Source: an uncultured virus (IMG/VR IMGVR_UViG_3300033074_001867)
Lineage: Duplodnaviria > Heunggongvirae > Uroviricota > Caudoviricetes
Reading direction: 5' to 3' (one strand)
Length of the DNA: 20,000 bases
Virus record (IMG/VR): IMGVR_UViG_3300033074_001867
The position numbers and the translations under genes were made by a program. The notes beneath the pieces are model-generated. The model saw nothing but the letters and a program-made list of their open reading frames with translations. It was not told the origin of the DNA and did not search any database. This document shows, one piece after another, positions 5,898 through 19,850 of the stretch (position 1 is its first letter; each line of letters opens with the position of its first letter).

Positions 5898-5923
5898 TTA
5901 CCATGTTTTAAGGTTTATTACGG

Positions 5924-5958
5924 AAGCACTGTATCTTAGTTGACACAGTGCTTTTTTT
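5924..5958 (+). terminator. Rho-independent terminator
   Basis: Stem AAGCACTGT/ACAGTGCTT followed by a T run, directly after the + strand operon. Confidence 0.8.
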
Positions 5959-6017
5959 ATTTCATTAATATATTTATTGGGACAATAGATTCTCATAACT
6001 GTTGCGTCAATATAGAT

Positions 6018-6372
6018 GTTAGCGGTCAGGCTAAAACAACGAAGCAGCTAATTCGCAACCTGCATTATCATCGCTTACATCTAATCCCGCAAATGGTCTT
6101 TGGTAGTTAAGTCTGTGAACTTTTCTAACATCAGGTTGCTTAACATTTCGTGCTTCAATAAAAAGCGTTCCATTTTCATCTTTTACAAAATCACATTCAA
6201 CATAATCATTGGCATCATAAGCCTGCTGTAATGTTTCAAATTTTGTAGTGTCAAAGAAATCATCAAATGTTCCTCTGCTTTTTTGTTTCCCAAATAGGTA
6301 AATTTTTTCGTAACTCATTTTTCTTATTATTAAACTTTAGACTTCTAAAAGCGGAGAAGCCCGAACCGCTAA
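6018..6372 (-). mobile_element. IR-flanked single-gene cassette (attC-like ends)
   Basis: GTTAGCGGTCAGGCT (6018-6032) and AGCCCGAACCGCTAA (6358-6372) are imperfect inverted repeats bracketing the 95-aa ORF. Confidence 0.5.
6031..6318 (-). CDS. Hypothetical protein (cassette cargo)
   Basis: 95-aa ORF opposite to its neighbours, with A-rich leader; stop codon overlaps the left IR. Confidence 0.7.
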   Translation of the reverse strand: MSYEKIYLFGKQKSRGTFDDFFDTTKFETLQQAYDANDYVECDFVKDENGTLFIEARNVKQPDVRKVHRLNYQRPFAGLDVSDDNAGCELAASLF

Positions 6373-6479
6373 TGCTACTTTTTTTTCGATTTTAATAATT
6401 TCACTTTTGAGCATAAAATGGGCAATTATTACTATTGTTACTGTACTAAGTGTTACTGTTATCAAAGAAAACCAGAGAA

Positions 6480-6890
6480 GGAGTTTGTTGAGAGAAGAGC
6501 AAAGTTCTGTCTAAGAAATACGTTTCCGTACCTCTTAGAACAGCTCATTGCAAAAAGAAAACCATGTCGGTCGCCCGCTTCGCTTCGAGATCAGGTCTTA
6601 ATAATCTATCCTGACTGAGAAATTTTATCGCCGGATTATCGGCTATTGGCTTGGGTCATTTCTCTTTAGTTCTAACCCTGACGGTTGCCACGTCCCACAG
6701 TACCGTCTTTTTACTCAGGAACATGCTGCCAGCTTTCTGTAATCCAGACCACGTCCTGTTATGAACGGGAAATCCCAGCTAACCTTTCGGCGCCGGGACT
6801 TTTACAAATAACAAAAATCAGTTACCTGACTCTATTAATTTTCTTTGTTAAAAAAACCTGATACTCTGATTTTTATTATTGTAATTCCCG
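6480..6890 (-). ncRNA. Candidate large structured non-coding RNA / long leader
   Basis: At least six stems; G-U wobbles and two GAAA tetraloops read on the minus strand; consensus promoter immediately upstream; no credible ORF. Confidence 0.6.
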
Positions 6891-6895
6891 TGCCA

Positions 6896-6928
6896 CAAAG
6901 ATACACACATAGATTTATTCCATGCAAA
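6896..6928 (-). promoter_or_regulatory. Bacteroidota primary-sigma promoter
   Basis: Minus strand TTTG (6928-6925) - 21 nt - TATCTTTG (6903-6896), matching TTTG-N19-21-TAnnTTTG. Confidence 0.75.
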
Positions 6929-6947
6929 TATTTTTTACATTTACTTC

Positions 6948-7535
6948 ATGGAAAACCGAATAAAGTGGGTAGTATGCGTAATTCTTGCAATAATCGCACT
7001 TTTTATTTTGAATAAATTTGCTGACAAAAAGGAAATTCCGGACCAAGTGACGGTAATTGTACAGGATTCAAGTAAATTCGAGGTGAGTAATCCTGCTCCC
7101 AAGATCACTATTCCGCCGGCCAATTATGATTTTGGATGGATAAACCAGATGCAGTCAATCGATTCCTTAAAAATGGCATTGATACAGGCTATTACGGACG
7201 CTAAGACGGTGCGTGAATACGACAGCACTCATATAGCCAAAAACACTTCCGGCGATACCCTGGCAATCGCTACACTGAAACAAACAGTAACAGACAACCG
7301 TTTGAGTAAATACTCTTTGAACATAAAGACTTTTAATAAAGAAACGACTATTCGGGAGCAGTTGAAGTGGGGGATTATGGGTGGCGTTCAGTTTCGAAAG
7401 GATTCTACTACTCACTTGGATCTGCAAGCCGATGTAATGCTGCCGAAAATGACTTTGAGTGGATTTAAAGAAATTGGGGGCAATGGCTTTGGAATGGGAA
7501 TAAAATTACCAATCATAAAAAACTATGGCAAGTAG
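6948..7535 (+). CDS. Spanin-like / lysis-associated membrane-anchored protein
   Basis: N-terminal TM anchor, extended middle region, C-terminal amphipathic beta strands (WGIMGGV...GFGMGIKL); overlaps the endolysin start. Confidence 0.5.
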   Translation: MENRIKWVVCVILAIIALFILNKFADKKEIPDQVTVIVQDSSKFEVSNPAPKITIPPANYDFGWINQMQSIDSLKMALIQAITDAKTVREYDSTHIAKNTSGDTLAIATLKQTVTDNRLSKYSLNIKTFNKETTIREQLKWGIMGGVQFRKDSTTHLDLQADVMLPKMTLSGFKEIGGNGFGMGIKLPIIKNYGK

Positions 7536-7953
7536 AAACATTGCAGACTGCGTACCTGAACTACAGGTAGCATGGACAGACTCTCAGGCGGAGTGGAAAC
7601 AACTATTCCCTGATCAACCACAACCATTTTTAACATGCACGCACCGGCCCGATGAAGAGCAGGAAATTCTCTACATGATGAATAAGAACGGCAAGGATGA
7701 TGATGGTGATGGAAAAATCGATGAAGGAGATGAATGGAGAAGTAATGCCAAGCCCGGACAGAGCAAGCATAATAAGTTTCCTGCCCAGGCTCTTGATATT
7801 GCTTTTAAGAATTCGAAAGGTAAACTGGATTGGTCAGAGAAGCTATTTGCCGGATTTGCTATTTTAATGAAGAAAAGAGGTATAAAGTGGGGTGGCGATT
7901 GGGTAAGTTTAAAAAAATCCAAAAAAAATGACACTCCTCACTTTGAGGTTTGA
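7525..7953 (+). CDS. Endolysin, peptidase M15 family (L-Ala-D-Glu peptidase-like)
   Basis: Motifs TCTHR..EEQ, SKH....AQALD, WGGDW and DTPHFE (Zn ligands H, D, H). Confidence 0.9.
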   Translation: MASRNIADCVPELQVAWTDSQAEWKQLFPDQPQPFLTCTHRPDEEQEILYMMNKNGKDDDGDGKIDEGDEWRSNAKPGQSKHNKFPAQALDIAFKNSKGKLDWSEKLFAGFAILMKKRGIKWGGDWVSLKKSKKNDTPHFEV

Positions 7954-8541
7954 TATTTAGTATATTTGGGAGTGAATAAACGACCAGAAAACAGCCACCT
8001 TTATAGAAGATGTAGAATTTGCAAGGAAACAAAACCTTTAAATAACATATTTTTTTATAATGAAAAAAGCAGACTGTATGGACTGTCTTATGTTTGCAGA
8101 CCATGTGAGAGTATAAGGGGAAAAGAAAAGGCACTGAAGTATCCAAGAAAGAATCGAGTATATAATTTCAGTCCAGAACAGATAGAAAGAAGGCGAAAGC
8201 ATGGTAGAAATTATAAGTTAAAGGCGCTTGGAATAATAAAGAAATATACGCTAATAGATCGTAAAAAAGGAGGTCGGCATGTTTGTGATTTAACAGAAGA
8301 TTTTTTAAATCAAAACATATTGCCTTGTGCCTGTGTATACTGTGGAGATAGATGGAAAATAGGGTGTGATAGAATAGATAATTCTAGGGGACATTCTATG
8401 GACAATGTAGTTCCTTGTTGCAAATTATGTAATGTAACCAGGATGCATAATTATACTCACGAAGAAATGAAGTTATTAGGAAAAGTAATTATGCGTATAA
8501 AAAAGAAGCGCAAGAAAGACACTCCTCATTTCGAAGTATAA
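7930..8541 (+). repeat. Direct repeat of the DTPHFEV* coding sequence (7930-7953 and 8518-8541)
   Basis: GACACTCCTCACTTTGAGGTTTGA vs GACACTCCTCATTTCGAAGTATAA: first 11 nt identical, then only synonymous changes. Confidence 0.9.
7966..8541 (+). CDS. HNH-like (homing) endonuclease
   Basis: N-terminal CRIC...CRPC Zn ribbon; C-terminal CVYCG...DRIDNSRGH..DNVVPCCKLCN nuclease motif; TTG (7966) or GTG (7972) start. Confidence 0.8.
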   Translation: MGVNKRPENSHLYRRCRICKETKPLNNIFFYNEKSRLYGLSYVCRPCESIRGKEKALKYPRKNRVYNFSPEQIERRRKHGRNYKLKALGIIKKYTLIDRKKGGRHVCDLTEDFLNQNILPCACVYCGDRWKIGCDRIDNSRGHSMDNVVPCCKLCNVTRMHNYTHEEMKLLGKVIMRIKKKRKKDTPHFEV

Positions 8542-8593
8542 ATTTGTTAATAACTTTTTCGTATATTATCGTATGCTTTAGGACGCAGTGATG

Positions 8594-8601
8594 TATCTTT
8601 G
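8594..8601 (+). promoter_or_regulatory. Bacteroidota -7 promoter element
   Basis: TATCTTTG 23 nt upstream of the ATG at 8625; no clean -33 box. Confidence 0.55.
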
Positions 8602-8624
8602 TAGAGTAACAAAAACAAAGAAGT

Positions 8625-8804
8625 ATGTCAGAAACAAAGGAAATCCGGATATATGAAGCGCCGGAAGAGTTGTATGATTGGATTACTGCATTAAGTAAGA
8701 AGATGGCTAATGCAGGAGTATCTAAAACGTCTCTAATGTTGCTTAATGAAGCAAGAGAAGCCAGAGATAAACAAGAGAAAAAAAATGCGGGTAAGAATAA
8801 CTAA
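8625..8804 (+). CDS. Small ribbon-helix-helix (Arc/Mnt-like) regulator candidate, 59 aa
   Basis: Hand translation MSETKEIRIYEAPEELYDWITALSKKMANAGVSKTSLMLLNEAREARDKQEKKNAGKNN; beta-helix-helix pattern; first gene of the operon. Confidence 0.55.
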   Translation: MSETKEIRIYEAPEELYDWITALSKKMANAGVSKTSLMLLNEAREARDKQEKKNAGKNN

Positions 8805-8985
8805 CCGGGAATACGATGATCGTGTTATCTTCCTGAATCAAAATGATTTTGACGATCAGGGGACAAAATTTGTCCGTAAATCCGATGGAATGGAAGTCTC
8901 CAATGAGGAACTTGAATTTCTGGATAAGCCCGAATGGCAGGAAAAAGTAGTCAAAACAAAAGTCAATAAACTAATAACAAACTAA
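8785..8985 (+). CDS. Hypothetical protein
   Basis: Start moved to the ATG at 8785 (MRVRITNREY). Confidence 0.6.
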   Translation: MRVRITNREYDDRVIFLNQNDFDDQGTKFVRKSDGMEVSNEELEFLDKPEWQEKVVKTKVNKLITN

Positions 8986-8989
8986 AATA

Positions 8990-9562
8990 ATGGCAAAATC
9001 TAACATCACACCTAATCCGGCAGCTTCCGGAGATCTTGATTTTTTAACGAATGATATGGACAAGAAAGAGCCTGTCCAGGAACAGAAAGTAAGTGACGTA
9101 TCCTCTGATGTTGCAGTGATCGAAGATCAGGAAAGCTCAGAAGTAATGGTTGTGTCTGGAAAACCGTCTCTATTAACAGTAGTGGATCTTTCTTCGGAAG
9201 AATTCCCCGACATGGATAATACAGATGTTGCTCCGATCGATCTAATGTCGGAATACTGGACACCAAAGGTTGCCGGCGAAAAGAAAAAAGTGGTATTTGC
9301 TCACTTTGGAGAAATGGAAGTGTTGGATCAGAAAACTAATCCGCCGTCACCTCAGATGCTTAAATGTGCTTTCTTCTATGAGAAGCAAGGAGAGCACATC
9401 AAATGTGTGAGCAATGGAAGTAAACGTTTGGTAGGAGCACTAGAATCTCTGCATTTGGCTCCGGGAACTCTTCTTCAGGTAGAATACTTGGGTAAGAAGA
9501 AAAACTCTACCAACTCAAATATGTCAGATGATTGGAGTGTAAAACCACTTGTTCGCAGATAA
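8990..9562 (+). CDS. Hypothetical protein, possible OB-fold ssDNA-binding/recombination protein
   Basis: Acidic disordered N-terminus and beta-rich C-domain; adjacent to the SMC-like ATPase. Confidence 0.5.
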   Translation: MAKSNITPNPAASGDLDFLTNDMDKKEPVQEQKVSDVSSDVAVIEDQESSEVMVVSGKPSLLTVVDLSSEEFPDMDNTDVAPIDLMSEYWTPKVAGEKKKVVFAHFGEMEVLDQKTNPPSPQMLKCAFFYEKQGEHIKCVSNGSKRLVGALESLHLAPGTLLQVEYLGKKKNSTNSNMSDDWSVKPLVRR

Positions 9563-19075: not shown

Positions 19076-19386
19076 TTCCCTTTCTCCTTTCCATTAGCAT
19101 CAATGACTTTCTGTTCCTGTTTAAATGTTTGATTGAAATAATCTTCGCTTCCATTATACGTACCTCTTATTTCCGAAACCGCTCCATTTTCAAACGCATC
19201 CACTATATTCTGCCGTTCTTCGGATTGTTTGGATTGAAGGTCTTCTACTACTGATTCTAAAATAGCTATGTGATTCATTACGGATAATTTGTTATCATCG
19301 CCTTCAATAAAATCTAAATACTCTCGCTTTGACTTTATACTTTTCTGATACTCCCCTATCAGTTGGGTTGTGATTAGTTCTTTCAT
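19072..19386 (-). CDS. Hypothetical protein
   Basis: EERQNIVDAFENG...EDYFNQTF segment of a type seen in Bacteroidota phage accessory proteins. Confidence 0.7.
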   Translation of the reverse strand: MKELITTQLIGEYQKSIKSKREYLDFIEGDDNKLSVMNHIAILESVVEDLQSKQSEERQNIVDAFENGAVSEIRGTYNGSEDYFNQTFKQEQKVIDANGKEKGK

Positions 19387-19850
19387 GGTAGGTTTAGTGT
19401 TTCAAAATAGAATATTACAGGCTTTGGTGTTTCCTGAACTTGTCCGTATCGTTTTGCAAATTTGTATGTTGCATTGTGATTTCTGTTTAATGAGTCAACC
19501 GTTTGCTCAATGTATTTTCTGAAATCATCTACTGAACTATTGCTTTTTGTGATATTGCAACTGTGACAAGCGGGTAAAGAATTTTCAACCGTATCACGTT
19601 CAGGATTTAAAACTTTGTCAAGAACCAATTTACTTGGAATGTGTTCGTATTCAGTGAACCATTGATTGGGTAATTCTTTATAGGTTACTTTTTCTTTTGT
19701 AACCTTGTGTCGGTAATGGCTTTCACTGTATTTCATTTGACGATTAACCGGTAGTACATGGTCTATGTGCCAATTCTTACCTAAAACATTCCCGCAATAA
19801 GCACACCGCCCATTACATTTATCAAGAATGTTTTTTCTGTCCGCTTTCAT
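19383..19850 (-). CDS. HNH endonuclease
   Basis: GRCAYCG...WHIDHVLP...ENSLPACHSCNITK. Confidence 0.85.
   Translation of the reverse strand: MKADRKNILDKCNGRCAYCGNVLGKNWHIDHVLPVNRQMKYSESHYRHKVTKEKVTYKELPNQWFTEYEHIPSKLVLDKVLNPERDTVENSLPACHSCNITKSNSSVDDFRKYIEQTVDSLNRNHNATYKFAKRYGQVQETPKPVIFYFETLNLP

Follow-up and report, generated by a model that had tools for sequence, protein, structure and literature searches.

A candidate HNH homing cassette replacing the 3' end of an endolysin gene in a phage

Why should an endolysin gene and the nuclease gene behind it end in the same seven amino acids? The question is raised by a locus in a 20,000-nucleotide (nt) stretch of DNA, here called the window, from the uncultured Caudoviricetes virus IMGVR_UViG_3300033074_001867. 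We consider it highly probable that positions 7900-8514 of the window are a free-standing HNH homing cassette of a '3'-end-replacing' type, joined on its left by co-converted sequence from about 7764 onward. The cassette would have supplied the endolysin gene with a foreign end and pushed the native end downstream, where it now closes the open reading frame (ORF) of the nuclease. The parts of the locus, including the coding sequences (CDSs) with their lengths in amino acids (aa), are as follows.

7525..7953, plus strand: endolysin CDS, 142 aa, an M15_4/LAS-type L-alanyl-D-glutamate peptidase, intact, with H82 and D136-x-x-H139
7764..7899, plus strand: putative left co-conversion tract, in which the divergence of the lysin body from the HNH-free contig L001 climbs from about 1% to about 15-17%
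7900..7953, plus strand: replacement lysin tail, consisting of W126, the loop VSLKKSKKN (7903-7929), DTPHFEV (7930-7950) and TGA
7954..7965, plus strand: 12-nt spacer from the lysin stop to the HNH start (18 nt with the GTG start at 7972), in frame and with no additional stop
7966..8541, plus strand: CDS of the HNH (His-Me finger, PacI/EndoVII-like) nuclease, its native part reaching to about R182 (8509-8511), without a stop codon of its own
8515..8541, plus strand: displaced native lysin tail K-DTPHFEV-TAA, read as the final nine codons of the HNH ORF
8542..9562, plus strand: downstream flank and putative right homology arm, with genes of 59, 79 and 190 aa; the same ORFs are present in L001

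The endolysin ORF ends ...KKSKKNDTPHFEV (also written ...GIKWGGDWVSLKKSKKNDTPHFEV) at a TGA stop, and the HNH ORF, in the same frame, ends ...KKRKKDTPHFEV (also written ...GKVIMRIKKKRKKDTPHFEV) at TAA, the last seven residues of both being DTPHFEV. Counted from the TTG at 7966 the HNH ORF has 191 aa, and from the GTG at 7972, where the gene-caller version (P0063) begins, 189 aa. The two DNA copies of DTPHFEV and its stop start at 7930 and 8518 and lie 588 nt (196 codons) apart. They are identical over GACACTCCTCA and then differ as CAC/CAT, TTT/TTC, GAG/GAA, GTT/GTA and TGA/TAA, so that 19/24 nt match, with three codons identical, five differing silently (the stop included) and none showing a replacement. 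An initial annotation of this DNA had pointed to the shared ending, to its silent differences and to the 588-nt distance, and both the sequence and the ORF reading agree with it. A repeat search of 7400-8700 returned the pair as the sole direct-repeat family (26 nt, 81%, spacing 588). We judge the repeat to be real because of its position, at the final seven codons and stop of adjacent ORFs in the same frame with 7/7 residues identical, and because of comparative evidence: an empty allele, independent assemblies and recurrence.

The empty allele came from L001, an IMG/VR contig that lacks the HNH gene; a blastn search of 6900-9000 against 50,697 phage records gave no match. The L001 lysin has 137 aa and 90% protein identity to the window lysin, and at the DNA level L001 is about 97-98% identical to the window on either side of the insertion, with about 99% over the first 255 nt of the lysin gene and about 97.7% from 8515 on. 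In L001, as in a contig of the sequencing run X9, the lysin ends ...WGGDFKKRKDTPHFEV in the codons of the downstream type. The last 27 nt of the L001 gene match window 8515-8541 at 26/27 positions and continue directly into the 8542+ flank, whereas the inserted, upstream copy matches L001 at 20/27 nt and has in addition a 15-nt longer loop. Where the window has the 615 nt of 7900-8514, L001 has 12 nt (F-KKR), giving an end composed of F + KKRK + DTPHFEV, with neither W126 nor the nine-residue loop. L001 and X9 are therefore the HNH-free alleles that the initial annotation had predicted, in which the downstream-type codons join straight to the 8542+ flank. The guanine-cytosine fraction falls along the locus, from 0.445 (7525-7825) through 0.367 (7826-7953) to 0.335 in the HNH gene. 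As a separate observation, L001 has a gene for a 260-aa DNA methyltransferase (L001:232-1014; phrog_67, 2.3e-77) between the upstream gene and the lysin; it is absent from the window, where these two genes overlap (7535/7525), and marks a second insertion-deletion polymorphism beside the lysin.

Public sequencing data supplied further alleles. The stretch 7300-8800 is present in 18 runs of eight studies (wastewater, freshwater and river metagenomes), and four of these runs were compared contig by contig. Run X15 carries the whole stretch on one contig with 0 differences, possibly being the source of the window; X3 carries 7354-8800 on one contig with 10 differences; and X7 carries the whole stretch on one contig with 36 differences. 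The occupied layout is unbroken in these contigs from three studies, which refutes the mis-assembly that the initial annotation had named as a danger to its reading. Of the 34 listed differences in X7, 31 lie in 7333-7825 and none in 7826-8542 (where at most two could be unlisted), the rest being at 8543, 8670 and 8756. The cassette is near-identical while the left flank has diverged by about 6%, the contrast to be expected of an element passing from one genome to another. Run X9 holds one contig that joins 7892 to 8515 and another that covers 8062-8512. In the joining contig (depth 7.0) the 19 nt between 7892 and 8515 encode GGDFKKR, completing ...WGGDFKKR, and the HNH contig (depth 4.9) has 0 differences, so that empty and occupied alleles occur in one sample. 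As is usual for free-standing homing genes, the element is present in some and absent from other near-identical genomes and is more conserved than its flanks. The left switch point lies at about 7764 when the window is set against L001 and at 7825-7852 in X7, and these differing points look like variable co-conversion tracts.

The nuclease carries an N-terminal CxxC...CxxC followed by CxxC...DRIDN..GH...N..PCCxxCN, and matches phrog_1035 'endonuclease VII' (5.8e-19) and phrog_3118 'HNH endonuclease' (3.6e-5) in PHROG. A profile of ten relatives matches the HNH restriction enzyme PacI (3ldy, 8e-6) and the HNH structure 4h9d (1.2e-4). Invariant across these relatives are C123, C126, R136, N139, H143, N147, C152, C155 and N156, as befits a beta-beta-alpha-metal motif with zinc-binding Cys pairs; all invariant residues of the family are present in the window HNH, and the last one, in the ten aligned relatives, is R182. 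The gene is intact, and PacI and solved HNH structures are among its relatives. Most of the 150 representatives nearest the family profile end 0-6 residues past I[KR]xxR, and native ends read, for example, ...IKRRRKQ (L008) and ...IKNNRTKNLE (L007). Because native HNH proteins normally end just past this basic patch, DTPHFEV is foreign to the nuclease and borrowed, and not the native C-terminus of the family. These ends agree with the proposal that the displaced lysin tail, stop codon included, became the C-terminus of the HNH gene: as we read the sequence, the ORF is without its own stop and continues through the displaced tail to the old lysin TAA.

Lysin-like endings are not confined to this nuclease. 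The HNH protein P0064 ends ...KRRSTPHYEI, and the short-tailed lysin P0019, of which P0003 is a long-tailed near-twin, ends ...NRRKDTPHYEI; the tails alone suggest that lysin P0003 and HNH P0064 form a pair. P0069 and P0127 end in the lysin tail ...DLPHFE[LI], P0227 ends ...KDWMHFEGCR, P0148 ends ...YDAPHFQYNEGRSMAQLRDAY..., and P0066-68, P0125 and P0128 end ...LEAGKP[YF]V, again of a lysin-tail type. In addition, a longer HNH form in L090/L093 (2572-3414) ends ...DKGEEIIIEIV, similar to the end ...DRGEEITIEIV of a 153-aa ORF that precedes the HNH gene in L008 (L008:2994-3455), and from this likeness the family may borrow the tails of a second host gene as well.

How does the endolysin fare in this arrangement? 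Its match to Pfam PF13539 (Peptidase_M15_4; 29.2 bits, cut-off 25, E 1.5e-6) covers residues 77-142 and profile positions 5-70 of 70, reaching the last position, and it also matches phrog_465 'endolysin' (1.8e-12). A profile from 17 lysin relatives matches the catalytic domains of Ply500 (2vo9, 3e-10) and LysB4 (6akv). SKH82...D91 and D136-T-P-H139 align with sNHN..vaVD and DyPHFEL of Ply500/LysB4, and the residues of these motifs, SxH...D and D-x-x-H, presumably include the zinc ligand and the catalytic Asp, as in EndoT5 and Ply500. The AlphaFold2 (AF2) model of the lysin has a predicted local distance difference test (pLDDT) score of 73.9; its best Foldseek match is 2vo9 (1.4e-4), 6akv and 5opz are matched too, and EndoT5 (2mxz) stands at rank 7. 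On this model the protein is assigned to the LAS fold. The ORF is complete to DTPHFEV, with H82 and D136-x-x-H139 present, in keeping with the earlier claim that the lysin was left intact. What sets it apart is the loop. Both the Ply500 and the LysB4 catalytic domain end ...kwGGDWksfkDyPHFEL, which makes four residues between WGGDW and D-x-P-H the family norm, whereas the window lysin has nine (VSLKKSKKN). In the AF2 model these nine residues have a pLDDT below 50 and form a surface loop flanked by structured strands. Apart from the tail, lysin residues 56-72 (window 7690-7740) form an acidic insertion, GKDDDGDGKIDEGDEW, in which D58, D59, D60, D62, G63, D66, E67, D69 and E70 are invariant in the 17 relatives. 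The insertion is not found in Ply500/LysB4, has low confidence in the lysin model and, from its sequence, looks like a metal-binding loop.

The long loop gives a hint of where the replacement tail came from. Lysins with this loop (W[VI]xLxK[SA]xxND.PH...) make up 8 of 62 lysin relatives, the rest having the short loop. On a tree of lysin bodies, built from 53 rows with only the sequence before WGG, the long-loop label changes five times, and no bootstrap tree allows a single change; the sister of the window lysin is the short-tailed L001 (100/92), and that of P0003 is the short-tailed P0019 (100/99). The cassette probably acquired the 3' end of a long-loop lysin from a diverged donor and introduced that end to lineages with a short loop. 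Where the two copies differ silently, this is best read as the divergence of donor and recipient lysins under selection for the same peptide, not as recoding. Of the 'recoded replacement tail' of the initial annotation, the replacement copy with its silent differences stands, but the recoding does not: the tail belongs to a natural class with nine instead of four loop residues, which also occurs HNH-free. The silent differences may make it less likely that the copies recombine and so delete the element, and together with the 15-nt longer WGGDW-DxPHF spacing they could make the working copy uncuttable.

The arrangement is not restricted to the window. HNH-alignment scans of fetched loci yielded 113 related HNH ORFs, which group into 87 clusters at 90% identity. 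According to a motif test, 27 of the 87 abut the 3' end of a lysin-like gene, a lower bound because the motif missed PHW lysins such as that of L102/103. The lysin is upstream and co-oriented in seven of these clusters, convergent with a 3' overlap of 20-113 nt in 19, and downstream in one; of 12 lysin-like neighbours tested, 11 score above the cut-off for Pfam Peptidase_M15_4. Where the two genes converge, the HNH tail (...QSEGHQE... and similar) is the antisense reading of the lysin FPDGPHFEL codons. Counted by locus, the tail-to-tail overlap of HNH and lysin occurs in 28 loci (20-113 nt, for example L097:3473-3546 and L091:3515-3594), and the last 7-38 residues of the convergent HNHs are antisense to the lysin DGPHFEL region, a conserved gene overlap.

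The initial annotation had called for a survey of lysin-HNH pairs with duplicated C-termini. When 108 loci were scanned at the protein level for resemblance of one HNH flank to the other (median score 33), six non-redundant loci, the window included, proved to carry a duplicated lysin 3' end; three are co-oriented and three antisense.

L069, score 128, co-oriented: 32 codons from FKDMPHFD, displaced copy out of frame
L119/120, score 110, HNH antisense: ...PHFQWTGGLTLAQLRAGK...
Window, score 60, co-oriented: DTPHFEV
L102/103, score 52, HNH antisense: PHWEL...YPA
L067, score 47, HNH antisense: GPHYQL.W.SYP
L062, score 43, co-oriented: ALLEAGKPYV

The duplications in L102/103 and L067 came from the alignment-based scan, and high flank scores in L035, L079, L055, L135, L113 and L106 were rejected as low-complexity noise. 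The HNHs of the duplication loci have 33-46% identity to the window HNH and accompany different lysin subtypes. In five of the six loci, no more than three codons (0-3) separate the D of DxPH from the start of the displaced copy. The copies have diverged in every locus, chiefly at silent sites: L062 has 8 silent and 1 replacement difference in 11 codons at a spacing of 571 nt, L119 has 13 silent differences in 27 codons with no replacement inside PHFQWTGGLTLAQLRAGK, and L069 has 7 silent and 10 replacement differences in 32 codons. HNH-free lysins of the L062 type (L139-L142) end ...LEAGTPYV or ...FEAGKLKV and have the same membrane-protein gene behind them. A further relative of the nuclease (951-1523 in L054:816-1622) lies between two tRNA-Asp(GTC) genes (816-891 and 1548-1622) in the tRNA cluster of a metagenome-assembled genome (MAG) contig, where the nuclease is apparently flanked by two copies of a whole small gene, much as in the lysin-tail loci.

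How might such a cassette work? It consists of a foreign copy of the last 17 codons and stop of the lysin, the 12-nt spacer and a stop-less HNH gene, and its insertion point in an M15 endolysin gene would lie after the WGGD codons and before those for K-DxPHF. The imported tail would complete the lysin, and the native tail would be pushed 588 nt downstream, where the HNH ORF would read through to the native TAA. During co-infection, the nuclease would cut or nick HNH-free lysin alleles in or near the WGGDW-loop-DxPHF codons; in ordinary alleles the WGGDW and DxPHF codons are 12 nt apart. The break would then be repaired from the occupied genome, with the lysin body as the left arm and the displaced tail and downstream genes as the right arm, and repair would copy in the cassette plus a variable length of the left flank. 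The occupied allele is presumed to be immune, its site being split by the insertion and the imported copy being silently different and having a loop 15 nt longer. The layout probably goes back to a free-standing HNH gene located after a lysin, as in L060, L063, L065 and L088; during repair of a cut recipient, this gene may have been joined by microhomology to the broken lysin end. Cleavage and its specificity, immunity and HNH expression are what we infer from the locus; its parts, the two allelic states, the cassette on diverged backgrounds and its recurrence at the site, in lysins with little DNA in common, are observed as described above. The locus holds what marks 3'-end-replacing elements, namely a nuclease, an alternative 3' end and a displaced native end, of which the displaced copy is native-like and the inserted copy divergent.

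Other explanations of the layout have to be weighed. The HNH gene may have been domesticated, serving for instance as a weapon against co-infecting relatives and lying beside the lysin for regulation such as late co-expression, with the tail duplication as a by-product. Its weak start codon (TTG or GTG), 12-18 nt past the lysin stop and in the same frame, suggests coupled late expression, and in a jumbo phage an intron endonuclease has been described as mediating interference between co-infecting phages (PMC11620839, in its accessible part). Such a benefit would be compatible with homing. However, the presence and absence of the gene among near-identical genomes and inside one sample indicate that it is dispensable, and the 19 convergent clusters argue against a required co-transcription with the lysin; we regard domestication as unlikely.

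Alternatively, a passive or defunct HNH gene without lysin specificity may have been joined to the lysin once, by illegitimate recombination at a microhomology, and have spread by ordinary homologous recombination. The junction indeed lies in an A-rich microhomology (HNH ...IKKKRKK against lysin ...FKKRK), phage genomes are mosaic, and L001 differs from the window also by the methyltransferase insertion just upstream. A single event does not account for a layout found in six non-redundant loci with diverged HNHs, varied lysin subtypes and both orientations, with five of the six junctions beside DxPH and 27 of the 87 HNH clusters abutting a lysin 3' end, nor for a near-identical cassette within diverged flanks. 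We consider this explanation distinctly unlikely.

Could the HNH region instead be spliced out or bypassed, as a self-splicing intron, an intein or a lysin-HNH-tail polyprotein made by read-through of the TGA? The shared frame, with a TGA and four sense codons in between, and a spacing of exactly 196 codons would fit. Against an intron stands the lack of any Rfam family in 7000-9200 at E<=1, and against an intein the lack of a Pfam Hint/intein domain. The lysin is complete before the TGA at 7951, its Pfam and PDB homologues ending at PHFE, and TGA is an ordinary stop in the window (10 of the 31 ORFs counted). Moreover, the spacing in L062 is not a multiple of 3, the displaced copy of L069 is out of frame, and L119, L103 and L067 are antisense. 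A group I intron or an intein was rejected for the missing Rfam and Hint matches and the stop after a complete lysin, in line with the initial annotation's intron-less and intein-less element, and we hold splicing or bypass in any form to be very improbable. A chance resemblance or an assembly chimera, for which only the shuffling result given below speaks, is scarcely credible given the occupied layout on contiguous sequence in three studies, the precise empty allele and the identity of 7/7 residues at two ORF ends.

Several findings nevertheless weigh against the homing cassette, or narrow what it can explain. As bare DNA the repeat is weak: of 200 mononucleotide shuffles of 7400-8700, 16 also produced a 19/24 pair. 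The right junction can be placed only to within about 15 nt (~8500-8514), because both partners have A-rich Lys/Arg codons there, and the allele data come from Logan contigs, from which allele frequencies are not derivable. No Pfam HNH model matches the HNH ORF at E<=0.1. By the motif test, which undercounts neighbours, 60 of the 87 HNH clusters are without a lysin neighbour. Duplications are missing from the co-oriented loci L060/61, L063, L065 and L088/89, where the HNH gene follows right behind the lysin stop and scores fall inside the shuffled-tail null, and a motif search of the 19 convergent loci found a displaced copy in one only. The tail-replacing layout is a minority state of the HNH family, many of whose members are plain free-standing genes behind a lysin. 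In L062 the junction lies 17 codons 3' of DxPH, so that the DxPH codons are not a universal insertion point; the initial annotation's homing at the conserved DxPH site holds as a correlation across five of six junctions and fails at this one. Finally, the long-loop lysins L026, L027 and L028 have no adjacent HNH gene, being followed by a terminator-like intergenic region or the next gene, and occur as sole lysins. The imported tail is therefore not diagnostic of the cassette, and we rejected the idea that the long-loop tail always travels with the HNH gene.

A bolder reading would make the whole HNH family specialised on the 3' ends of phage M15 endolysin genes, as a phage counterpart of the yeast WHO/FBA1 system, with a bipartite WGGDW + DxPHF target, with the long-loop tail as a carried resistance allele that persists as a scar after loss of the HNH gene, and with such cassettes commonly giving rise to mosaic 3' ends in phage genes. 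We put this forward tentatively and lean against it; if true, the scar would explain the scatter of the long loop over at least five lysin lineages.

Elsewhere in the window, neither strand has an ORF of more than 95 aa in about 1 kb (5900-6947) upstream of the lysin module. A second, different HNH endonuclease gene (19383-19850, minus strand; 155 aa; phrog_2118, 2.5e-38) shows no apparent duplicated neighbour tail, its upstream gene being cut by the window end.

What emerges, on our inference from these sequences, is a real, mobile and recurrent HNH cassette by which the end of an endolysin gene in a phage is replaced. Besides introns or inteins and intergenic free-standing genes, this would give homing endonuclease genes a third way into essential phage genes, in which the end of the gene is replaced and the gene is not split. 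It would also account for phage genes whose 3' ends are locally mosaic, and for annotated HNH proteins with odd C-terminal extensions, which would be host-gene tails borrowed in sense or antisense. L001 and X9 on the one side and the window on the other provide naturally matched pairs of lysin alleles, the former presumably sensitive and the latter presumably resistant, for the study of HNH target recognition and immunity. For annotation, the locus calls for caution: the last nine residues of the 'HNH protein' are lysin sequence, and trees of full-length lysins mix two histories.

How does this layout compare with known homing systems? T4 SegF, SegG and MobE are free-standing phage homing endonucleases that move by intronless homing. 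The present element resembles such enzymes in that its gene lies beside a conserved phage gene, is sporadic among relatives, has co-converted flanks and encodes an HNH/EndoVII-type motif; unlike it, they sit between genes or split a gene in two. An EndoVII motif is also found in F-CphI of cyanophage S-PM2, a free-standing homing endonuclease (PMC6083498; for this and the following papers we refer to their accessible parts). A search of the open-access literature, including the accessible parts of the surveys PMC10448857 and PMC12724721 and with subscription papers outside its reach, found no phage element that carries a substitute 3' end of a host gene and leaves the old end behind, and the accessible text of the two papers on yeast WHO elements (PMC7282813; bioRxiv 10.64898/2026.08.13.744650) holds no phage case. 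The tail-replacing layout has apparently not yet been described in phages.

Its closest parallels lie in fungi. In the mitochondrial genes atp6, atp9, cox2 and nad3 of Glomus, a divergent C-terminus and a mobile ORF (mORF), in some cases in phase, are inserted ahead of the native C-terminus; the native one is nearly identical to that of relatives, and the inserted copy is divergent in DNA and conserved in protein (PMC3630166, which cites atp6 of Allomyces macrogynus as the first mORF case). C-terminal duplications in atp6 and cob likewise lie beside endonuclease ORFs in Endoconidiophora (PMC6279837). That fungal mitochondrial endonuclease genes rebuild the 3' ends of host genes, as the initial annotation stated, is borne out by these two papers. 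The phage locus shares with the mORFs a nuclease ORF and a foreign C-terminal segment in the 3' part of a host gene, a displaced native end that is relative-like, an inserted copy that is divergent in DNA and conserved in protein, and, with some of them, the phase. It differs in its bacteriophage setting and endolysin host gene, in an HNH (His-Me finger) nuclease in place of LAGLIDADG or GIY-YIG enzymes, in a duplicated part of down to 8-9 codons, in the existence of antisense versions, and in a nuclease that ends in the displaced tail and its stop codon.

The WHO elements of Torulaspora and Lachancea, which affect the one yeast nuclear gene in which, besides fungal mitochondria, end replacement has been documented so far, combine an endonuclease gene with an alternative 3' half of FBA1 and cleave in an allele-specific manner (PMC7282813; bioRxiv 10.64898/2026.08.13.744650), and 33% of synonymous target changes confer resistance (bioRxiv 10.64898/2026.08.13.744650). 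As is presumed for the phage element, homing replaces the 3' end of the host gene with neither a split nor splicing, sensitive and resistant host alleles coexist, and silent changes in the target can give resistance. WHO elements differ in their intein-like LAGLIDADG nuclease with a zinc finger, their nuclear genome, their FBA1 host of which half the gene is replaced, and their occurrence in clusters, whereas the phage has a single HNH gene and 17 replaced codons; and allele-specific cleavage has been shown for WHO, while the phage element is known from its sequence. Judged by that sequence, the phage HNH element works like the mORF and WHO elements without being a member of either by descent, its nuclease being related to neither LAGLIDADG, GIY-YIG nor HO enzymes.

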